From Ignavibacteriota bacterium (GTDB taxonomy: Bacteria > Bacteroidota > Ignavibacteria > Kapaibacteriales > UBA2268): a DNA stretch of 64,000 bases. Under the pieces are notes generated by a model. It ran no database searches and was not told the DNA's origin. It was given only the letters and a program-made list of their open reading frames with translations. This document shows, in pieces, positions 2,742 to 53,791 of this stretch. Location: NCBI GenBank assembly GCA_019637995.1, contig JAHBUQ010000001.1, positions 902,381 through 966,380 of the forward strand, written 5' to 3'. The position numbers were made by a program, and so were the translations under genes. Positions within the stretch are counted from its first letter, which is position 1, and each line of letters starts with the position of its first letter.

Positions 2742-5348
2742 GTGTATAATATGAAAATTAATTATATAATTTTACTGATTATTTCAATTTTATTTTTGCA
2801 AACTTTAGACTCCAAGAGTCAGCTTTCAAAAGAGCAACTTAAGGTTTTGATGCCATCTGAAAGTCGCTTTGTAACTGACCTGAGTGGGAATTGGGAACGG
2901 ACAGAAAATATGCGTGACTGGACATCTGTAAGGATTCCTTTGTCTGAGCAGATAGATGAAAAAGTCATTTACAAAAGATTTGTCAAAATTCCTGCTGAAA
3001 TGGTTGATAACTTTTCTTGGCAGTTGTATTTCCTTGGAATTGACCATAATGTCGAAGTATTCTGGAATGAGCAATTCATTGGAAAATATGTAGGCTCGTT
3101 AGTCCCTTTTAATGTAAGAATTCCGGATAATACAGTTAGAAACGAAACTAATGAAATAAGACTTGTCATAACACCTGCCACAAGCAAAATTAAACAAATA
3201 CGTAATCAGCACCTTAACGCCAGACGTGAATTTTCCGGAATCATCAGGGAAGTGTTACTTTTTGGAACACCACAGGCTTGGATATCTGATATTAGACATA
3301 ATGTAAAGTTAAAGGGACAAAATTCTGCTGACATTCAGGTTAAAGTCAGTTTGTCAACAGCAGAAATAAAAGCACTTATCAATAAGTTGAAAGTAAAGGA
3401 TTCAATAAGTGTTGCCTCGAATGATAAAATTAAACTTTCAATAATGTCCGAACTCAGGAAGCAGGGTAGTGGTGATTTGATTCAAATTTCATCTGAGAAA
3501 AGCATAACATTAGAAAGTGAAAGAACTATTGATGATGAAATAGCAATGCCTGTATCAGGGATTAATCTCTGGAGTCCTGAAACACCTGATTTGTATTATC
3601 TCACAGTCAAGCTAAAAAGAGGCGATTTAACAATTGATGATTATACTGTTCCAATCGGTTTTCGCTCTCTGAAAACAGCAATGGATGGTGAAAATTCTAT
3701 ACTTCTTCTAAATGGTCAGAATTTTAAACTAAAGGGCGTATCTTATGTAGAAGACTACAAAGACCTTGGTCAATCTCTGACTGTTTCTAAGATTATTCAA
3801 GACATTGAATTAATAAAAAAATTGGGCGCTAATACTGTTAGAGCAAAATTCAATACCCCGCATCCATTCTTTGTTCATTTGTGTAATTCAAACGGACTGA
3901 TGATTATGCTTGAACTTCCGATTTATGATGTACCCTCGAGCCTCATAAATCTCGATGAGATAAAAGTTTATAATCAAAATTTAGCTAAGCAATACGTAAG
4001 TAAGTTTGATATAAATCCATCTGTAATAGCATGGGGAGTCGGTGAAGGAGTTGATGAAAGCACTGAACATTATAAAAATTTTTCTGAATCAATATTAAAA
4101 TTATTTGCTAAAGATTCAGATAAATTAAAATATAAAATTCTCCCTCATGGTATAAGCAAAGTTCATACAGAAGGATTTGATTTTATTGGATATTCCGACA
4201 TCAGACAAAATGTAGATTTCAATCAAATAAATTATGAATTTAAAAGAATTCAGTCCATAATTGATAATAAACCACTATTTATGGCATTTGGTACTGAAAT
4301 TCAAATAAATAATCATAATGGTTATTCCGACCCTCTTTCTTTAGAGTTTCAGGCTTATAATATATTAAACTCTTTTAAAATTGTTGAAAAGAATAATGGA
4401 ATTGGATGTATAGTTAATACATACAATGATTATTTACAAAACAAACCTTCACTGACAACCAACAACGATTTACAGTATATCCAAACAAGCGGACTTGTTG
4501 ACAGAAACCGCCTCGAAAGGCTTTCATTCTCGACTCTTCAGGCATTATTCAATAAAGAAAAAGAACCATTGCTTAACGCCGGCAGTCACACCCGAAGCTC
4601 GCCTCCAATTTATCTGATATTCGGAATTTTGCTGGCAATTTTACTTGTATTTTTAATCAACAGATTCAAACGCTTCAGAGAATATATGTTCAGGTCAATT
4701 CTAAGACCTTACAATTTTTATTCAGATATACGAGACCAGAGAATAATTTCAAGCATTCAAACTATATTACTTGGTGTGATTTTATCATCTACTGTAGGAA
4801 TATTTTTATCCTCAATATTGTTTTATTACAAAGACAGTGAAGTTCTTGAATATTTTCTAATGATACTTTTGCCCTCAAATTCAATCAAAGAGTTTGTTTA
4901 CAGTTTGATATGGATGCCTGAGCTGTCTTTTATTTTTATAACTATTGTAAGTTATATGCTGGCATTTATAACGGCATGGATAATCCGTGTTTTTGCAGTG
5001 CTTTCGCGAGCCAGAGTTTACTGGAATGACTGCCTGACAATTTCTATTTGGGCTGCACTTCCTGCTGTCATTCTTTTGCCGATTTCAATTGTTTTAATTA
5101 GATTACTGGTAGCTTCACCTGCTACAATTTGGCTGTTTTTATTACTTTATGCCACAACAAGTATATGGACTGTTGCAAGACTTCTCAAATCAATTTCTGT
5201 AGTTTTTGATATTCCTGTAATGAGATCATACATAATTGGATTTGTGATAATGTTCATTTCCATTGCAGCGCCACTTGGATATTATCATGTAAAATATTCA
5301 TTTTTTGCATACTCATCATACTTTTTTGAAGTACTATTAAGCAACTAA
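2742..5348 (+). CDS. Membrane-anchored protein with a GH2-like (sugar-binding jelly-roll plus TIM-barrel-like) N-terminal ectodomain and a polytopic C-terminal membrane domain
   Basis: There is a signal/TM segment at the N-terminus. The GH2-like motifs are NTVRAKFNTPHP and IAWGVGEG (compare NxxRxxHYP and WSxGNE). The last ~250 aa form 7–9 predicted TM helices. Confidence 0.45.
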   Translation: MYNMKINYIILLIISILFLQTLDSKSQLSKEQLKVLMPSESRFVTDLSGNWERTENMRDWTSVRIPLSEQIDEKVIYKRFVKIPAEMVDNFSWQLYFLGIDHNVEVFWNEQFIGKYVGSLVPFNVRIPDNTVRNETNEIRLVITPATSKIKQIRNQHLNARREFSGIIREVLLFGTPQAWISDIRHNVKLKGQNSADIQVKVSLSTAEIKALINKLKVKDSISVASNDKIKLSIMSELRKQGSGDLIQISSEKSITLESERTIDDEIAMPVSGINLWSPETPDLYYLTVKLKRGDLTIDDYTVPIGFRSLKTAMDGENSILLLNGQNFKLKGVSYVEDYKDLGQSLTVSKIIQDIELIKKLGANTVRAKFNTPHPFFVHLCNSNGLMIMLELPIYDVPSSLINLDEIKVYNQNLAKQYVSKFDINPSVIAWGVGEGVDESTEHYKNFSESILKLFAKDSDKLKYKILPHGISKVHTEGFDFIGYSDIRQNVDFNQINYEFKRIQSIIDNKPLFMAFGTEIQINNHNGYSDPLSLEFQAYNILNSFKIVEKNNGIGCIVNTYNDYLQNKPSLTTNNDLQYIQTSGLVDRNRLERLSFSTLQALFNKEKEPLLNAGSHTRSSPPIYLIFGILLAILLVFLINRFKRFREYMFRSILRPYNFYSDIRDQRIISSIQTILLGVILSSTVGIFLSSILFYYKDSEVLEYFLMILLPSNSIKEFVYSLIWMPELSFIFITIVSYMLAFITAWIIRVFAVLSRARVYWNDCLTISIWAALPAVILLPISIVLIRLLVASPATIWLFLLLYATTSIWTVARLLKSISVVFDIPVMRSYIIGFVIMFISIAAPLGYYHVKYSFFAYSSYFFEVLLSN

Positions 5349-6250
5349 TGGAGATAATCAATATGCACTATATATTAGAAGAATTAAAATTAATCCGTAA
5401 AGGCAAGGTCAGAGAAGTCTATGAAGCCGGAAAAGATATTCTGTTTGTAGCATCTGACAGAATATCTGCTTTTGACGTAATAATGGCTCAGCCTGTTGCA
5501 GATAAGGGAAAAATTCTCACAGCAATTTCTGAATACTGGTTTCATGAAACAAAATCAATAATTGATAATCATTTCATTAGTTCGAATATTAATGACTTAC
5601 CATCTGAAATAACAGAGAAACACTCTGATATGTTAGCCGGTAGGTCTATGCTTGTTAAAAAAGCAGAGCCACTACCTATTGAGTTTGTAGTCAGAGGTTA
5701 TCTTGCCGGTAGCGGCTGGAAAGAATATAAGTTGAGTAAATCAGTTTGTGGCATTTCACTTCCTGATGGACTTCTCGAGTATTCTAAGCTACCGGAACCA
5801 ATTTTCACACCTGCAACAAAAGCTGAAACAGGTCACGATGAAAATATTTCTTACAAACAAGCTTCAGAAATTTTAGGTGAAGAAACTGCTTCATATCTGA
5901 GAACTATTTCAATAAAATTATATAATTTCGCTCATCAACGGCTGTACGAAAAAGGCATAATACTAGCCGATACAAAATTTGAATTCGGTAAAGATGATAA
6001 AGGTAATCTCATTTTAATTGATGAAGCACTTACACCGGATTCTTCGAGATTCTGGTTAATGTCAGACTATGTTCCTGGTAAACCGCAAATGAATTTTGAT
6101 AAACAAATTTTAAGAGATTATCTGGAAAGCATACCTTGGAATAAACAATATCCACCACCAAATCTTCCTGAAAAAATCCTACGTGGTACTTTAGAAAAGT
6201 ATGCTTATGCATACGAATTGATTACCGGCAATAAATGGCAAATTGATTAA
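5348..6250 (+). CDS. purC: Phosphoribosylaminoimidazole-succinocarboxamide synthase (SAICAR synthetase)
   Basis: Conserved PurC N-terminus (GKVREVYE, SDRISAFD) with full-length similarity. The ATG overlaps the upstream stop (TAATG). Confidence 0.9.
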   Translation: MEIINMHYILEELKLIRKGKVREVYEAGKDILFVASDRISAFDVIMAQPVADKGKILTAISEYWFHETKSIIDNHFISSNINDLPSEITEKHSDMLAGRSMLVKKAEPLPIEFVVRGYLAGSGWKEYKLSKSVCGISLPDGLLEYSKLPEPIFTPATKAETGHDENISYKQASEILGEETASYLRTISIKLYNFAHQRLYEKGIILADTKFEFGKDDKGNLILIDEALTPDSSRFWLMSDYVPGKPQMNFDKQILRDYLESIPWNKQYPPPNLPEKILRGTLEKYAYAYELITGNKWQID

Positions 6251-44246: not shown

Positions 44247-45476
44247 ATGTATAAATATTTGATTTTTTTACTGTTAATATGCTTAACAAGCAAAATTTAC
44301 TCTCAAAATGAATGGGGTGGTACCCCATATGGCTATGTTAAAGCTGACGTTTTTTTGGATACAAGGCAAGTAGTAAACGTTAGAGATGGTCACGTACTCC
44401 TCTACCCCGCTCCGCGTCTTGAAGCAAATGGTGAAGATGCTAATGAAGGATTGAACTTCAACATTTTGGCAATTCAATCAAGATTTGGATTTAGAATTAA
44501 AGCTCCTGATTTCCTTGGAGCTAAAGCAAGTGGTGTAATTGAAGGTGAATTCTTTGGCTCCACAAATACTGATATCGGGAGTGTAAGACTTAGACTTGCT
44601 AATGTCAAACTTGACTGGGGTAAACACGAAGTAGTTGCCGGTCACGACTGGCATCCATTATTTATTGCTGAAGCATTAGCTCAGACAATATCTTTCAACA
44701 CAGGAATACCTTTTGTAGCATTTGCAAGAAATCCGCTTGTTACTTATACCTATAAAACTGATAACTTCAAAGCTATGCTTTCAGGAGTAACTGAGATGGA
44801 GTTCCCAAGTACAGGACCTCAGGGACCATCTACTTCATACCTTAGGAATGCAGGATTTCCTATGCTGAATCTCGGACTCAGATACTCGATTGATAAGTTT
44901 TACTTTGCAGCAAATGCAAATTACAAAGAACTGAAGCCGCGTTTAATAAGTGATCAGGGATTCAAAGACCATAACGTTACTTCCGGATTTACTGCAAATT
45001 TTCTAATGAGATACAAAACTGATGATTTCTATATTACTGCTTCAGTTCTTCAGGGACAGAATACTTTTGATTTGTTGATGTTGGGTGGATATGCAGTTAA
45101 AAGCATTGACCCAACTACAGGAGTATGGGAATATTCCGCAATGAATACCCGCTCTGCATGGCTTGATATGCAATATGGTAAAGACCTGACCTTTGGAGTT
45201 TTTGGTGGCTTTGAAACCAATTTGGGTGCGAATGATGAAATCGTAGGTAATTACTATGCACGAGGTATAACTCAAAATAAAGACGCCGGTACGGATATTG
45301 ATTATATTTATAGATTATCTCCACGTATTGCTTATAAATTAGGTAAGACACAAATCGCCACAGAGCTCGAATACTCGGCAGCCGCTTATGGCAAAAGAGA
45401 CAACAAGGGTAAGGTAAGTGATTCGCAAGAAGTAAGAAACCTGAGAATACTCGTTGCTGCTTTTATTTTCTTTTAA
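44247..45476 (+). CDS. Hypothetical outer-membrane beta-barrel (porin-like) protein
   Basis: Signal peptide, amphipathic beta-strands and a C-terminal aromatic residue (…AAFIFF). Confidence 0.4.
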   Translation: MYKYLIFLLLICLTSKIYSQNEWGGTPYGYVKADVFLDTRQVVNVRDGHVLLYPAPRLEANGEDANEGLNFNILAIQSRFGFRIKAPDFLGAKASGVIEGEFFGSTNTDIGSVRLRLANVKLDWGKHEVVAGHDWHPLFIAEALAQTISFNTGIPFVAFARNPLVTYTYKTDNFKAMLSGVTEMEFPSTGPQGPSTSYLRNAGFPMLNLGLRYSIDKFYFAANANYKELKPRLISDQGFKDHNVTSGFTANFLMRYKTDDFYITASVLQGQNTFDLLMLGGYAVKSIDPTTGVWEYSAMNTRSAWLDMQYGKDLTFGVFGGFETNLGANDEIVGNYYARGITQNKDAGTDIDYIYRLSPRIAYKLGKTQIATELEYSAAAYGKRDNKGKVSDSQEVRNLRILVAAFIFF

Positions 45477-45522: not shown

Positions 45523-45561
45523 AAACTTCCGAAGTTTTGAAAACTTCGGAAGTTTTTTTTT
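45523..45561 (+). terminator. Long perfect palindromic hairpin plus T-run (terminator or REP-like element)
   Basis: AAACTTCCGAAGTTTTgaAAAACTTCGGAAGTTT forms a 16-bp stem, followed by a T9 run. A second copy of the arms lies at 62909–62941. Confidence 0.65.
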
Positions 45562-45776
45562 ATCTTTCATGAAATTGTCAATTGTCAATTGGTGAAAGCT
45601 ACGTAGTTGCGAACTATTAATAGCAAAAAGATACCCAACACCACCACAAAAATCAATGTTCCCAAAAATCTTTGTGCAATCAAATACCTGAAAGTAGTCT
45701 TGTGCCACTTTCATCTGCAATTCTTGATGTTTGTTTTGTTGGGCATAAGGCAAAATTTGATAAAATGATTCACTAA

Positions 45777-46154
45777 TTAATTATCATCAATATATGAAAA
45801 GGATTGTGGTGGTGCCATATTAAACTCTGCTTTAAGGCATTTAGGGTTCTTATACTTAAAAAACTTCTTAATTTTTATTGCAAACCCTCTTTCTTTATCT
45901 GAAAAATATCTATAATAAAAGTCTTCTGAAACCCCTGAATACTCGTGAGTTAAATGCCAAAGTGTATCAATATCAAAATTTAATATTTCATCTATTTCAA
46001 ATTCACCAATGACCTGTTGAACTGGAGATGAAGCATAAACAATTATTGACTTGACACGTTTATTTTTGAATATTGATCTTCTATACTCAAATTTTTTTGT
46101 TCCATCAAAAATTTTAAATGCAAATTCTGGTTTAATTGATAATAAGACTTTCAT
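45777..46154 (-). CDS. ASCH-domain (PUA-like) protein
   Basis: Canonical ASCH GxKxxExR motif (DGTKKFEYRR) near the N-terminus of a ~125-aa beta-barrel-sized protein. Its start overlaps the end of the upstream 510-aa gene by 23 nt. Confidence 0.75.
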   Translation of the reverse strand: MKVLLSIKPEFAFKIFDGTKKFEYRRSIFKNKRVKSIIVYASSPVQQVIGEFEIDEILNFDIDTLWHLTHEYSGVSEDFYYRYFSDKERGFAIKIKKFFKYKNPKCLKAEFNMAPPQSFSYIDDN

Positions 46155-47664
46155 TTGTTCCCGTTTCTCTTAATATTATTTCAAATTGGGTTTTAGTTAT
46201 TCTTTTTAATCCTCTAATCTCATTGTCTTCACCTGAAAGAATTCCTAAATCTAATAATCTTTGACGATTTATTCTTTTACCTGTTGGGAATGAATGAGTA
46301 TATAGAAAATTTATGATGAAAGGTCTAGATTTTGGAGACCAATTCCAATACTTTCTAAGTTCATTATCGGAAAATATACTTCTTTTTCTACATTTAAGTA
46401 TAAAATCATTTTCATCTGAAATATCAGTAATTTTATCTTCAGCAATTGCAATTGTAGTAATTACACTACTATAATAGGCGGATCTACCTGATGCTGCAGT
46501 TCTATAAAAAACAATGATATCCCCTTTTCTTATATCTCTTTCAATTGAACGAGATATATAAACTTTGCTAATTGCATTTCGATGTGGTTGATTTTCAATA
46601 AAATCGAAAGGAGACTCAGTCGTTAATATTGAATCAGGTAACAATTCTGTATGGTAATCTGGATAAATCGGTATCATAAATATATTTGTTTCTTTAGATA
46701 GATATGGAAATGTGAGTTTGGGATTATTTATATTGAATGCTGGAGTAAAATCACGAACATATACTAATTCTTCACCATTATTTGATGATTTTGTACCATA
46801 GTAAACAAACCCCCATTCCTCAAGCAGCCCAATCAATCTTTTCTGCTCTTCTCTTTTATTGAAAATTGTAACATAAATTTCATCAACTTTATTTTGAATA
46901 GCATTATCAAAAATTATTTTCATAAATCGCTCACCTAATCGTACCCCATTGCTTATGACTTTAAATGTACCTATTTTTAATCTCTTTTTTGGTTTAAAGA
47001 CTGGGGCAATATCTGAATAATTTTCATCACGATTTTCTACTTTCAAGAAGAGAAATGAAAGAATTTTCCCTTTATTTATTGTCACGTAAGCAGTTTCGTC
47101 TGATTTTTTCAAATACCATTTCTCGAACCCTGAATAATCTTCTTTGAAACTATCAAAAAAAGTGTCAGATAAATTTATTTCACCGAATAAATTTTTTGTT
47201 ACCGAAAGTACTTTATAATCAACTAAATCAGGATTTTCTGAAACAACTTTTTCCAGAAAAGAATCAATTTTAAAAACTCTATCATCAATTCCTAGAAGTT
47301 CTGCCTTTTTATGTATTTTCTTATCTTCAGTGATTAGAAAATCTATTCTTTCACTATAAATTTCATTTAAAAGAATTGTATCATTTCTATCATTTTGATT
47401 AACATCTAAAGTTTCTGAAACAACAATTACTTGAGGTCGCAATGGAGTTGTTGTTTTTAAAATCTCATAGCTTTTAAGTTTTACAGAAAGTGTATCAACC
47501 GTTTCCTTATTGCTATTTTTTTCAATCTCTTCAATAGTAATAGGGTGTACGCATTTTGTATATTTACCTTTATCTATCCATCTAAATAGAACTCCAATAT
47601 CAACATTGAAGACTCTACTTGCTTCACGATGAATAATTATGTTTGTGTCTAATAAAACTTTCAT
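46132..47664 (-). CDS. Multidomain protein: N-terminal PIN-like nuclease domain, central GNAT-like acetyltransferase-like region, C-terminal domain of unknown function
   Basis: PIN signature MKVLLDTNIIIH… with a later …FLITEDKK (third acidic residue, TxD). The central region resembles GNAT motif A and its core (ISNGVRLGERFMKIIFD…EIYVTIF…LLEEWGF). No recognisable motif was found in the last ~180 aa. Confidence 0.5.
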   Translation of the reverse strand: MKVLLDTNIIIHREASRVFNVDIGVLFRWIDKGKYTKCVHPITIEEIEKNSNKETVDTLSVKLKSYEILKTTTPLRPQVIVVSETLDVNQNDRNDTILLNEIYSERIDFLITEDKKIHKKAELLGIDDRVFKIDSFLEKVVSENPDLVDYKVLSVTKNLFGEINLSDTFFDSFKEDYSGFEKWYLKKSDETAYVTINKGKILSFLFLKVENRDENYSDIAPVFKPKKRLKIGTFKVISNGVRLGERFMKIIFDNAIQNKVDEIYVTIFNKREEQKRLIGLLEEWGFVYYGTKSSNNGEELVYVRDFTPAFNINNPKLTFPYLSKETNIFMIPIYPDYHTELLPDSILTTESPFDFIENQPHRNAISKVYISRSIERDIRKGDIIVFYRTAASGRSAYYSSVITTIAIAEDKITDISDENDFILKCRKRSIFSDNELRKYWNWSPKSRPFIINFLYTHSFPTGKRINRQRLLDLGILSGEDNEIRGLKRITKTQFEIILRETGTNESLIIN

Positions 47665-47890
47665 AATTAATCTGATTGCATAATTTACAATTCCTAATCA
47701 CCTATCTACATCTTCTCAATAAATGATTTTACAAAAATAGCAAAAAATATAATACTTACACATATTTTTACTGCATTTATTTTCAAGAAGTTTTCCACTA
47801 ATAAAGCCTTCCCAAAGCTCATCACTCAAGGAAGGTCTTTTATTTCATCATCTCCTTCAGGGTCTTGTCCTGAAATAGGTTGACACAAAA

Positions 47891-48316
47891 TTGGAGAAAA
47901 AGATGTCACAAAAGAAAAAATTTCTTATTTTAGGAGACAAGCGAATGTACACAGAGAATTTTAAAAAATCTGTAGTCGCCGAAGTAGAATCAGGTCGCAT
48001 AAGTAAAGAAGGCGCTCGCATAAAGTACGGCATAAAGGGAAATTCAGCAGTACTTAATTGGTGTCGGCAATACGGCAAGAATCAATATAAACCAAAATCA
48101 CCAGGTAGTTTAACTATGAATGACAAGTTGATATCACAAACATATAAAAATCGAATAAAAGAATTGGAGCAGGAACTATCTTCCAGCAAATTGAAAGTAA
48201 GTTATTTAGAAAATGTAATTGACGTACTTCAAGAACAGGGGGTAATAGATGCTGTAAAAAAGCCAGATACACCGCCATTGGTCTCACCAAAGCGGTCAAC
48301 CCGAAAGCATCGATAG
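47891..48316 (+). CDS. IS3-family transposase OrfA (HTH / leucine-zipper part)
   Basis: N-terminal HTH (…YTENFKKSVVAEVESG) and a coiled-coil, typical of IS3 OrfA. The frameshift heptamer lies near its 3' end. Confidence 0.85.
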   Translation: MEKKMSQKKKFLILGDKRMYTENFKKSVVAEVESGRISKEGARIKYGIKGNSAVLNWCRQYGKNQYKPKSPGSLTMNDKLISQTYKNRIKELEQELSSSKLKVSYLENVIDVLQEQGVIDAVKKPDTPPLVSPKRSTRKHR

Positions 48317-48339
48317 AAAGTATATGCAAAATAGCATCA

Positions 48340-49152
48340 TTGAGCCGTCAAGCCTATTATAAGCATAACAGCAAGATAGAACTAGACACAGTAAACAATC
48401 ATAAAGTACTTTCAATGGCTCTGTCTAAGCGTATACGTAATAGTAAACTAAGCTGTAAAAAGATATATTCAATGATTAAAGAAAGTCTCAAAACTGAGAA
48501 TATAAAGTTAGGTCGTGACAAATTTATCAATCTGATGGGTGAAAATGGTTTTCATGTAAAGCGAAAAAGACGTAATCCCAACACAACAAAAAGTAAACAT
48601 ACATTGCCAACATATACAAATAAACTCAAAGGTATAAAGATAAATAGAGCAGACCAGGTCTGGGTTAGCGACATAACCTTTGTTCGAACTTCACAAGGTT
48701 TTATGTACCTGTCATTAGTGACAGATTTATACAGTAGAAAGATTTTAGGCTACAACTTGAGCAAGAGTCAAAAAACTTCGGAAGTAATAAAGGCTTTACA
48801 AATGAGTCTTAAAAATAGTAAACGTCAGTCCGAGACCATCCACCATTCAGATCGTGGAATCCAATATTTATGTAGTGAATATACCAAGCACTTGAAATCA
48901 AATAATATCGAAACAAGCACAACAAAAGGAGGTAGTCCCCAAGAAAATGCAGTCGCCGAAAGAATAAACGGAATCTTAAAGCAAGAATACGGAATCTCAG
49001 ACTTAAGAATAAATATTCCTCAATGTCGAAAATTAGTTAAAGAAGCAATCGAGCTATATAACAATGAGCGCCCACACTTAAGTTTAAATATGAAGACTCC
49101 AGAACAGTATTACAATGAATTTTATTGCAATCTAAATAACAATATTCGATGA
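48340..49152 (+). CDS. IS3-family transposase OrfB (rve integrase-core DDE domain)
   Basis: DDE motifs (DQVWVSDITF, HHSDRGIQY, …ENAVAERINGILKQE). Confidence 0.9.
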   Translation: MSRQAYYKHNSKIELDTVNNHKVLSMALSKRIRNSKLSCKKIYSMIKESLKTENIKLGRDKFINLMGENGFHVKRKRRNPNTTKSKHTLPTYTNKLKGIKINRADQVWVSDITFVRTSQGFMYLSLVTDLYSRKILGYNLSKSQKTSEVIKALQMSLKNSKRQSETIHHSDRGIQYLCSEYTKHLKSNNIETSTTKGGSPQENAVAERINGILKQEYGISDLRINIPQCRKLVKEAIELYNNERPHLSLNMKTPEQYYNEFYCNLNNNIR

Positions 49153-49219
49153 TATTAATCGAATTTATTTTATAATTTATTTGTCAACCATTTTTAGGAC
49201 AAGACACAGAGAGTTGAAA

Positions 49220-49248
49220 CCCCGTCCCCGTCCCCGCCCCTCGCCACC
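49220..49248. repeat. C-rich tract (CCCCG)n-like, a G-quadruplex motif on the minus strand
   Basis: The sequence cccgtccccgtccccgcccctcgcc reads on the minus strand as four G4 runs with 1–2-nt loops. This is very atypical for an AT-rich genome. Confidence 0.8.
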
Positions 49249-49612
49249 TTTTCTATTAATAGTACGCTACTACGTAGCTAAAATATGTGTTTCCGGTGGG
49301 TTTCATTTTTCTATAATCATTTAATCTCTTCGAGATTATTCCCGTGCTACAACATCCATTTTCTATTAATGTTACGCTTCTACGTAGCTAAAATATGTGT
49401 TTCCGGTGGGTTTCATTTTTCTATAAATATTTAATCTCTTCGAGATTATTCCGGTGCTACAACATCCATTTTCTATTAATGTTACGCTTCTACGTAGCTA
49501 AAATATGGGTTTCCGGTAGGGTTTCATTTTTCTATAAATATTTAATCTCTTCGAGATTATTCCCGTGCTACAACATCCATTTTCTATTAATGTTACGCTA
49601 CTACGTTGCTTT
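49249..49612. repeat. Tandem direct repeat, 110-bp unit × about 3.3 copies
   Basis: Unit starts at 49249, 49359, 49469 and 49580, with the last copy truncated. Copies are more than 95% identical. Each carries the TAATCTC-TTCG-GAGATTA hairpin and a CTACGTAG palindrome. Confidence 0.9.
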
Positions 49613-49614
49613 TT

Positions 49615-49664
49615 CCCGACCCCCGACCCCCAACCCCATCCCCTATCCCCAAACCCCCGACTCC
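49615..49664. repeat. C-rich tract with multiple C4–5 runs, a G-quadruplex motif on the minus strand
   Basis: The sequence cccgacccccgacccccaaccccatcccctatccccaaacccccgactcc has at least six G4+ runs on the minus strand. Confidence 0.8.
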
Positions 49665-51314: not shown

Positions 51315-51632
51315 TTACACAATCTTAATTCCGCTTCTCAAAATCTCTTCAACTATTGGATTATCGGAATTAAAATCATTCTTACGAAATGTATGTGGTT
51401 GAATATCAATGCTTGTTTTTAAAGTGGCACCGGCAATTTTTTTTAAATCAAGAAATCTATTTCCAACAAAATCATCTGAAATAAGAGCAACATCAATGTC
51501 GCTCCATTCATTATAAGTGCCTTTAGCATAACTCCCAAAAAGAAAAGCTTCAACAATTTTAATCTGTGATTGCTCAATTTGTTCAACTAGTTTTTTGACT
51601 AAATCTATAGCTTTATTTGTGCTTTCAGCCAT
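51315..51632 (-). CDS. Nucleotidyltransferase-domain protein (MNT-type, minimal Pol-beta fold) without an adjacent HEPN partner
   Basis: GSxxxG…DxD motif (GSYAKGTYNEWSDIDVALIS). No HEPN-like ORF lies within 140 bp downstream. Confidence 0.7.
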   Translation of the reverse strand: MAESTNKAIDLVKKLVEQIEQSQIKIVEAFLFGSYAKGTYNEWSDIDVALISDDFVGNRFLDLKKIAGATLKTSIDIQPHTFRKNDFNSDNPIVEEILRSGIKIV

Positions 51633-53226: not shown

Positions 53227-53457
53227 ATGAAAACAGTATCACTAAAAATAGACAATTCTATATATGATGATTTAGAATCAGTATTAGCCAATTTCAAAAT
53301 ATCAAGAAACAGATATATCAACGATGCAATTAGATTCTATAATGATTTCCAAAAGAGACAAATCCTCGAAATCGAATTGGAAAAAGAGTCGAAACTTGTC
53401 AGTTCAGAATCAATGAAAGTTTTGGGAGAATTTAGTGAGTTGGATTATGTTGACTAA
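53227..53457 (+). CDS. Ribbon-helix-helix (CopG/MazE-like) antitoxin
   Basis: N-terminal beta-strand plus two-helix RHH pattern (TVSLKIDNSIYDDLESV…ISRNRYINDAIRFY). Its 3' end overlaps the toxin gene by 23 nt. Confidence 0.5.
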   Translation: MKTVSLKIDNSIYDDLESVLANFKISRNRYINDAIRFYNDFQKRQILEIELEKESKLVSSESMKVLGEFSELDYVD

Positions 53458-53791
53458 ACAGTTTGAAATCTGGCTTGCAGATTTGAACCCACAAATGGGA
53501 ACAGAACCGGGAAAGACAAGACCTGTACTAATCATACAAACAAATTTGCTTAATAAAATTCCGCATCCATCAACTATTATTTGTCCAATTACAACAAATG
53601 TTGAACCTGACTCTAAAATATTAAGGGTGAATATACCTCATAATACAACAGGACTGAATAAAAATAGTGATATTATGATTGACCAAATTCGTGCAATTGA
53701 TAATAAAATGTTAATCAAAAAAATTGGTGAATTACCTGATAATTTAATATCAAAAGTGAAAATGAATTTGATTATACTTTTGAATTTCTAA
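53435..53791 (+). CDS. PemK/MazF-family type II toxin (mRNA interferase)
   Basis: FEIWLADLNPQMGTEPGKTRPVLIIQ… is the MazF/PemK hallmark (…GxEQxGxRPxxVV/II). Confidence 0.8.
   Translation: MSWIMLTKQFEIWLADLNPQMGTEPGKTRPVLIIQTNLLNKIPHPSTIICPITTNVEPDSKILRVNIPHNTTGLNKNSDIMIDQIRAIDNKMLIKKIGELPDNLISKVKMNLIILLNF

Follow-up and report, generated by a model that had tools for sequence, protein, structure and literature searches.

A PIN-GNAT-EVE and ASCH gene pair in a Kapabacteria genome is a copy of a catalogued, mobile candidate defense cassette

A 64,000-nucleotide (nt) stretch of an Ignavibacteriota genome (GenBank assembly GCA_019637995.1, contig JAHBUQ010000001.1, positions 902,381 to 966,380), which we refer to as the window, carries two overlapping genes on its minus strand. 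One, gene A, encodes a 510-amino-acid (aa) protein that combines PIN, GNAT-fold and EVE-like domains, and the other, gene B, encodes a stand-alone ASCH protein. The pair is almost certainly a two-gene member of the (PIN)-GNAT-EVE plus ASCH operons, catalogued by PADLOC as candidate system PDC-M11. The locus is an ordinary copy of this horizontally mobile candidate cassette in a Kapabacteria metagenome-assembled genome (MAG), its products being 100% identical to KIT33_12920 (A) and KIT33_12915 (B) of the MAG of Candidatus Kapabacteria bacterium. With respect to function we favor, at a probability of about 0.6, a toxin-antitoxin-like anti-phage or abortive-infection module that is passed on horizontally.

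Identity and domains of the two proteins

Protein A matched the PADLOC profile PDC-M11A (PDLC04422) with E 5.4e-217, its residues 1-509 aligning with positions 1-500 of the 501 in the profile, and protein B matched PDC-M11B (PDLC04425) end to end with E 1.9e-50. Both open reading frames (ORFs) are genuine genes, far beyond chance, because searches returned over 5,400 homologs for A and over 3,300 for B, and the two co-occur in all 80 of the related loci considered below. A preliminary description of this DNA, made from the sequence alone, had reported two overlapping ORFs, one of 510 aa, with a shared end of 23 nt. The coordinates agree with the ORF list, and the motifs it quoted lie in A at residues 4-12 (LLDTNIIIH) and 111-116 (ITEDKK) and in B at residues 18-26 (GTKKFEYRR). 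The cassette has the following parts.

46132 to 47664, minus strand: gene A, 510 aa with an ATG start, a PIN-GNAT-EVE protein (ORF list, PADLOC PDC-M11A)
45777 to 46154, minus strand: gene B, 125 aa with an ATG start, a stand-alone ASCH protein (ORF list, PADLOC PDC-M11B)
46132 to 46154, minus strand: overlap of A and B, 23 nt, dual-coding for the end of A (..NESLIIN*) and the start of B (MKVLLSIK..)
47230 to 47664, minus strand: PIN domain of A, about aa 1-145 (Pfam PIN_3, Foldseek, residue check)
46705 to 47217, minus strand: GNAT-fold domain of A, about aa 150-320 (Foldseek, PHROGs, conservation)
46135 to 46704, minus strand: C-terminal PUA-like (EVE/ASCH-type) domain of A, about aa 321-510

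The architecture, which the preliminary description had taken to be new, is already on record in a survey by Bell, Wolf & Koonin (2020; PMC7641849), in PADLOC as PDC-M11 and in a 2025 phage record that names the pair GevT/GevA. According to Bell, Wolf & Koonin, nearly every PIN-GNAT-EVE operon encodes an ASCH protein, often together with an AAA_17 ATPase; the PIN-bearing forms lie near type I restriction-modification (R-M) and other defense systems, and the PIN-less forms lie in prophages. That paper names Iyer, Zhang, Burroughs & Aravind (2013) as the first to describe PIN-GNAT-EVE plus ASCH, and both papers are purely computational. The three-domain protein and the ASCH gene of those operons are the same as here, as are the occasional AAA_17 neighbor, the link with type I R-M and the PIN-less prophage versions in the family surveyed below. 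Nothing essential differs; the window holds the bare two genes beside an IS3 element, outside any R-M operon. PADLOC's PDC systems (PADLOC-DB v2; Payne et al., bioRxiv 10.1101/2024.01.29.577857) were drawn from genes embedded in type I R-M, BREX and DISARM operons.

Pfam and NCBIfam scans of A returned a PIN domain alone, with no GNAT, no EVE and no NCBIfam equivalog, and for this reason the domains of A were taken from structure prediction. We built an AlphaFold2 model from 58 homologs (mean predicted local distance difference test score, 81.7; predicted template-modeling score, 0.71) and compared it with the PDB using Foldseek. At the N-terminus, where a PIN nuclease had been proposed, Pfam PIN_3 matched aa 2-116 (E 5.4e-6; 27.7 bits against a cut-off of 27), the acidic set D6, E46, D95, E113 and D114 is complete (pattern 'DEDED' in the residue check), and Foldseek gave one PIN-like match, to the RNase P HARP (7og5). 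The middle domain matched dozens of GNAT structures at a Foldseek probability of 1.00, among them Naa60 (5icw, E 3e-5), NatC, Ard1, PaiA and AAC(6'), and the PHROGs acetyltransferase family phrog_13728 covers aa 155-293 (E 9.5e-22). The earlier GNAT call is therefore borne out by the model and by PHROGs, with Pfam silent for the sequence of A itself; among 59 relatives of A, Pfam detected Acetyltransf_1 in seven and EVE in seven.

The last ~180 residues of A, in which the preliminary description had seen no motif, are a PUA-like (EVE/ASCH-type) modified-base reader domain. Its best structural match is ZmASCH, and nearby folds include the EVE-HNH enzyme VcaM4I, the N-terminal domains of McrB and the PD-T4-3 reader. 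The modeling and Foldseek search that the preliminary description had proposed thus recovered the PIN and GNAT folds and put a name to the third domain. When the family of B was compared with this domain by hhalign, the match was weak (probability 17%, E 0.0015), which suggests shared ancestry of the two and does not prove it.

Conservation was read from the 59 relatives, which are diverse members of the family sharing 29-51% identity, and the GNAT is the most conserved region across them. Its core residues Y177, W183, E210, K230, Y264, T266, F286, E299 and P320 are invariant, and the loop G244-E-R246-F247, which is probably the loop that binds the pyrophosphate of acetyl-CoA, is nearly so. 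Within the reader domain, all members have K367, 57 of the 59 have Y387, and G381-D382 is conserved.

Protein B was correctly recognized at the outset as a stand-alone ASCH protein: it scored 21.9 bits with Pfam ASCH (cut-off 21.2), matched PDC-M11B and has ZmASCH (5gus/5guq) as its nearest PDB relative (E 8.6e-12, or 6.6e-20 with the family profile). Across 51 diverse sequences K20, E23, R25, Y40, S42, Q117 and S118 are invariant and G18 is conserved, and K20, E23 and R25 fall in a GKER octapeptide. By sequence, B belongs to the GKER or ZmASCH class of ASCH proteins, which is marked by this octapeptide, with conserved Lys and Glu, on a beta-barrel fold and includes ZmASCH, TthASCH, EOLA1 and the ASCH domain of TRIP4. 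B and ZmASCH have the GKER octapeptide in common, and the functional residues Tyr47, Gln127 and Ser128 of ZmASCH correspond to Y40, Q117 and S118 of B; a difference is that Lys53 of ZmASCH is Gln46 in B.

This placement removes the analogy that had been drawn with YqfB. The YqfB-type N4-acetylcytidine (ac4C) amidohydrolases carry a GK[T/S]R octapeptide, and we ruled out this type for B, which has GKER, sits in the ZmASCH branch and gave no profile match to YqfB. Since B falls outside YqfB, any analogy with ac4C amidohydrolases rests instead on a 2026 preprint about the GKER branch, which is also the source of the class definition. In that work 19 of the 19 ASCH proteins tested, ZmASCH among them, deacetylated ac4C in tRNA in vitro, and the Lys/Glu dyad of the octapeptide was essential for ac4C removal.

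As a side observation, a match of 58.6 bits linked B to the C-terminal 120 residues of the NCBIfam model PRK12279, '50S ribosomal protein L22/unknown domain fusion protein'. This match implies that some organisms carry ribosomal protein L22 joined to an ASCH domain of the B type, and the fusion hints at a connection of such domains with the ribosome or with RNA.

Pairing, architectures and mobility of the family

We surveyed related loci using one genome per species, which gave at least 541 loci with relatives of A; the counts that follow are from the best 80, which are 56-84% identical. These 80 come from Bacteroidota, Bacillota, Myxococcota, Thermodesulfobacteriota, Spirochaetes, Verrucomicrobia, Chloroflexota, Chlorobi, Proteobacteria and four archaeal MAGs. 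In every one of them the gene downstream of A on its strand is followed or formed by B, so the co-location of the two genes across genomes was found throughout. The two genes share exactly 23 nt in 70 of the 80 loci, and three archaeal loci have a gap of ~56 nt between the genes. The 23-nt overlap is probably a junction for translational coupling.

An exhaustive search of 50%-identity representatives yielded at least 1,864 clusters of the A family, found in bacteria, archaea, plasmids and phages. The proteins have three main architectures, of ~500 aa, ~350 aa (without PIN) and ~620 aa. The ~620-aa forms are ASCH-PIN-GNAT-EVE fusions (P0312, P0264, P0292, P0274 and P0272), and P0247 (632 aa) is a PIN-GNAT-EVE-ASCH protein, for which a frameshift artifact at the 23-nt overlap would also fit. 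Together, the fusions and the kept overlap indicate that A and B work together. In P0366 (532 aa) a TIR domain (TIR_2, E 1.7e-13) takes the place of PIN, giving TIR-GNAT-EVE. The N-terminal effector thus varies among PIN, TIR and none while GNAT-EVE is constant, a pattern that, as judged from these sequences, is the effector swapping typical of defense systems.

Relatives also turned up in phages (16 records) and on plasmids (33 records). Eight lambdoid E. coli phages carry GNAT-EVE and ASCH genes directly after cI, the slot occupied by rexAB in lambda. Identity is 39.6% between the phage GNAT-EVE protein and aa 160-510 of A and, over the full length, 46% between the phage ASCH protein and B, and the gene order and 23-nt overlap are as in A and B. 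The 2025 record PV340567.1 (Escherichia phage PhiR47_2, positions 3965-5393 of locus L081) names this pair GevT toxin and GevA antitoxin. GevT differs from A in lacking PIN and in its position in a prophage immunity region right after cI. A homolog in phage psiM100 is full-length and includes PIN, and PHROGs also holds a PIN-containing family.

The composition of the cassette and its boundaries also bear on mobility. With a GC content of 28.1%, while the window as a whole has 34.0%, it falls in the lowest 4% of segments of the same size, and its GC content at third codon positions is 0.16-0.18, compared with 0.24-0.31 in the neighboring genes. When window positions 45701-47856 were compared with the cassettes of L001-L008 and L036, nucleotide similarity of 74-78% ran from within 4 nt of the start of A to a point inside B. 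The flanks of these cassettes, which come from unrelated phyla, are unrelated, and no mobile-element boundaries could be recognized in them. Because similarity is bounded by the ATG of A and by B, the unit that was transferred is the bare two genes.

Alongside this pairing, 39 of the 80 loci have a third conserved gene, U, immediately upstream of A and in its orientation, often with a 4-nt overlap (for example L003:6937-8001, L039:6914-7981 and L055:6970-8004, all on the plus strand). U encodes ~340-375 aa, with a soluble part of ~270 aa ahead of two transmembrane helices predicted at the C-terminus. It had no match in Pfam or PADLOC and lies outside PADLOC's two-gene definition of PDC-M11; it could be an unrecognized membrane component of the system. 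Separately, two loci of Flavobacteriia type carry a ~320-aa gene between A and B (L060:9478-10482, plus strand, in a Chryseobacterium MAG, and L075:3054-4010, plus strand, in a Bacteroidia MAG). Its single hydrophobic C-terminal helix gives it a layout like that of U, and a hidden Markov model of U detected no homology.

Surroundings of the cassette in the window

In the window, the cassette has as neighbors an IS3 element as well as genes for a porin-like protein and a DEAD-box helicase. Two features adjoin the start of A.

47665 to 47856, minus strand: intergenic stretch from the IS3 end to the start of A, 192 nt, non-coding (sequence read)
47857 to 49210, plus strand: IS3-family insertion sequence with HTH_Tnp_1 and rve ORFs and 34-nt inverted repeats, context outside the system

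The terminal inverted repeats of the IS3 element lie at 47857-47890 and 49177-49210, so that its nearer end is 193 nt from the start codon of A, in line with the ~200 bp given earlier. The preliminary description had taken this element as part of a mobile context; we regard it as incidental, with a single copy in the window and homology that stops at the cassette ends. A composite transposon carrying the cassette was ruled out on the same single copy and on the lack of a matching flanking duplication, and neither the copy count in the window nor the flanking comparison gave any sign that IS3 had mobilized the cassette.

Elements of the form TAnnTTTG serve as -7 promoter elements in Bacteroidota. 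One motif of this type, TATTTTTG at 47739-47732, lies 68 nt ahead of the ATG of A and, from its sequence, could be such an element. A sigma-70 promoter scan gave 19 sites against 14.8 +/- 4.2 in shuffled sequence, which is no excess. At the other end, a hairpin with a perfect 15-bp stem and a T-run (45523-45555) lies between the convergent porin-like gene, which ends at 45476, and B, which ends at 45777. This hairpin probably serves the porin-like gene as its terminator and is possibly bidirectional. A second, weaker hairpin lies on the strand of B at 45713-45689.

Toxin-antitoxin-type genes had been noticed nearby, and Pfam confirmed two: a MazF/PemK-type toxin gene at 53435-53791 on the plus strand (E 4.6e-29) and an MNT-type nucleotidyltransferase gene at 51315-51632 on the minus strand (E 1.1e-12). 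A small ORF (53227-53457, plus strand) that lies upstream of the MazF/PemK gene and overlaps it could encode an antitoxin. The repeat array described as flanked by G-quadruplex (G4) motifs was also found, as a tandem repeat at 49249-49610 with a 110-nt unit in 3.3 copies of 95% identity, starting 39 nt from the right inverted repeat of IS3. Its flanks are C-rich, with CCCCGT repeated 3.5 times at 49220-49240 and CCCGACC/CCCCCAACCCCAT runs at 49615-49651.

The association with defense genes that had been anticipated was present around related loci and not in the window. Immediate neighbors in the related loci include HsdS, HsdM, HsdR, AAA_17 (VakA-like), HNH_5, PDDEXK, DUF1016/YhcG and AbiEii-type ATPases. 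In the window, PADLOC detected single generic helicase, ATPase and kinase domains, and no complete known defense system.

Proposed function and alternative readings

In the reading we favor, A would be the effector protein. Its EVE/PUA-like domain would dock on a nucleic acid with a particular, modified base, the likeliest being an RNA such as tRNA, and its GNAT would acylate the docked target from acetyl-CoA. PIN, whose active site is intact here, would cut RNA and so arrest translation in the infected cell. B, made in fixed proportion through the kept 23-nt overlap, would hold A harmless in uninfected cells. It may do so by using its invariant Lys20/Glu23 dyad to take the acetyl mark off again, or else by binding the substrate of A or A itself. 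The specific chemistry in which A acetylates and B deacetylates is doubtful on present evidence, and the fuller scheme of a reversible nucleic-acid acetylation system, with an EVE-guided GNAT that writes N-acetyl marks, a PIN that destroys RNA and an ASCH that erases the marks, we consider unlikely. The preliminary idea of a modification-linked toxin or defense system remains reasonable and fits predictions made by others, without the new architecture and the YqfB-like B that came with it.

The cassette can also be compared with several other systems. DarTG is a writer/eraser toxin-antitoxin system that acts in phage defense. The likeness to it, a toxin that modifies nucleic acid and a partner that removes the mark, is drawn by analogy only; DarTG ADP-ribosylates DNA whereas acetylation is presumed here, and the folds differ without homology. 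The type II toxins TacT, AtaT and KacT likewise use a GNAT fold to target translation, acting on aminoacyl-tRNA, which Bell, Wolf & Koonin (PMC7641849) suggest as a possible target of the GNAT. Those toxins are small and single-domain with an upstream antitoxin of the ribbon-helix-helix (RHH) or DUF1778 type, whereas A is a PIN/EVE fusion with ASCH downstream. We ruled out membership in TacAT, AtaRT or KacAT, as the GNAT lies in the middle of 510 aa, ASCH is downstream and no profile matched. VapBC was ruled out too, as PIN is fused to GNAT-EVE and the upstream 192 nt are non-coding and followed by IS3; TIGR00305 scored 16.1 bits on A against a cut-off of 29.15. The type IV enzymes VcaM4I (EVE-HNH) and McrB have HNH or PD-(D/E)xK nucleases in place of an RNase-type PIN, and the cassette adds to their plan an acetyltransferase and a second, separate PUA-like protein.

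Several observations weigh against a toxin-antitoxin-like module. Bell, Wolf & Koonin (PMC7641849) describe all of the modules as uncharacterized, and PDC-M11 is one of 145 candidates explicitly called untested (bioRxiv 10.1101/2024.01.29.577857). PDC systems are candidates only, so membership says nothing about proven function. We found no experimental characterization of PIN-GNAT-EVE plus ASCH in the searchable literature, nor any paper under the names GevT or GevA, which are depositor labels and serve as a lead, not as evidence. In this stretch, no R-M system or clear defense island surrounds the cassette. U is absent from the window, and a tblastn search found no remnant of it under or beside IS3, the best match (E 0.026) falling at another place.

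Further points against the favored reading come from the proteins themselves. Of 34 diverse PIN-bearing clusters, 10 have G-I-x-E-N in place of the catalytic acids of PIN and form a coherent subgroup (P0284, P0287, P0288, P0295, P0303 and P0340, for example, in alignment A2) whose PIN is probably inactive and retained for another role. The core mechanism of the family therefore does not require PIN to cleave RNA. The nearest GNAT folds in the model comparison are protein N-terminal acetyltransferases, so the substrate may be a protein or small molecule. The reported activities of ZmASCH conflict or are incomplete: it was first reported in 2017 as a Mg-dependent single-stranded RNA (ssRNA) nuclease, and the 2026 preprint, which found it to deacetylate ac4C in tRNA in vitro, also found it inactive on free ac4C and saw no significant drop in ac4C in vivo. 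Given this conflict, B could be a nuclease or a plain binder. For the fusions of ASCH to A, a co-reader or regulatory subunit is no worse an explanation than an opposing enzyme.

These fusions, at either end of A, are among the features that favor a modification-dependent, restriction-like sensor without self-toxicity, in which EVE and ASCH would together read hypermodified phage DNA or RNA, PIN or TIR would be the effector, the GNAT would mark or inactivate the foreign nucleic acid, and B would be a co-sensor rather than an antidote. The near folds of the C-terminal domain of A include type IV readers (VcaM4I EVE-HNH, the McrB N-terminal domains and PD-T4-3), and the family is frequently associated with type I R-M. 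Bell, Wolf & Koonin report an ASCH-HsdS fusion in Methanohalophilus and argue that ASCH proteins in such operons bind modified DNA (PMC7641849). A sensor, however, leaves no clear role for the strictly conserved acetyltransferase, a pure reader would not need the invariant, catalytic-type Lys/Glu dyad of B, and the depositor annotation names the phage homologs toxin and antitoxin. PIN domains are, moreover, typically RNases rather than DNA endonucleases. We rate such a sensor as rather improbable. The same dyad speaks against a classical antitoxin, in which B would bind A, repress the operon on DNA or do both, and its enzymatic potential would be irrelevant: K20, E23, R25, Y40, Q117 and S118 line the nucleic-acid and catalytic cleft defined in ZmASCH and TthASCH, and a cleft location of the invariant residues argues for substrate chemistry and not for a protein-protein interface. 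B lacks a helix-turn-helix (HTH) domain in Pfam, and its position downstream of the toxin gene is not that of most type II antitoxins. Translational coupling and the fusions would nevertheless fit a stoichiometric complex, ZmASCH binds single-stranded DNA besides RNA, and the Joint Genome Institute (JGI) names B homologs 'predicted transcriptional regulator'. HTH-ASCH fusions also adjoin PIN-GNAT-EVE genes on rhizobial plasmids, and a regulatory role has been suggested for them (PMC7641849). We judge a classical antitoxin to have a small chance of being correct.

The proposal of Bell, Wolf & Koonin (PMC7641849) is that a phage GNAT-EVE acetylates host aminoacyl-tRNAs and that the host PIN-GNAT-EVE recognizes these damaged tRNAs and degrades them with its PIN. 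PIN-less GNAT-EVE plus ASCH does occur in phages and prophages while PIN forms are mostly chromosomal or near R-M, and GNAT-EVE is common to both at ~40% identity. Against this, ~30% of PIN-bearing clusters have an inactive PIN, and the host form keeps every conserved GNAT residue, which a pure degrader would not need. The PIN-bearing psiM100 homolog and the PHROGs PIN family blur the division, so that the host/phage split is not clean, and we give the proposal very little weight. Even less probable is a housekeeping module in which a cellular writer, eraser and nuclease tune the acetylation of tRNA or rRNA. The finding that ASCH proteins can erase ac4C from tRNA (2026 preprint) would suit it, as would the match of B to the C-terminal part of the NCBIfam L22-fusion model (58.6 bits). 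The distribution of the cassette is patchy across phyla and domains at 58-84% identity, its relatives lie on plasmids, in phages and beside R-M genes, no NCBIfam equivalog exists, the cassette is a GC outlier and the unit of homology is the bare two genes. A housekeeping role is contradicted by these mobility data.

We return to the toxin-antitoxin-like module as the favored reading. The locus itself is ordinary, and the family of A, being very widespread and strongly conserved, is worth attention. The reported deacetylation of tRNA ac4C by GKER-class ASCH proteins, together with the obligate and probably translationally coupled pairing of GNAT and ASCH, yields a directly testable writer/eraser hypothesis. 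If U is indeed a membrane-anchored part of the system, an unnoticed component would be present in roughly half of the family. If the writer/eraser chemistry is true, the cassette would be an acetyl-CoA counterpart of DarTG and the first defense system based on reversible nucleobase acetylation.

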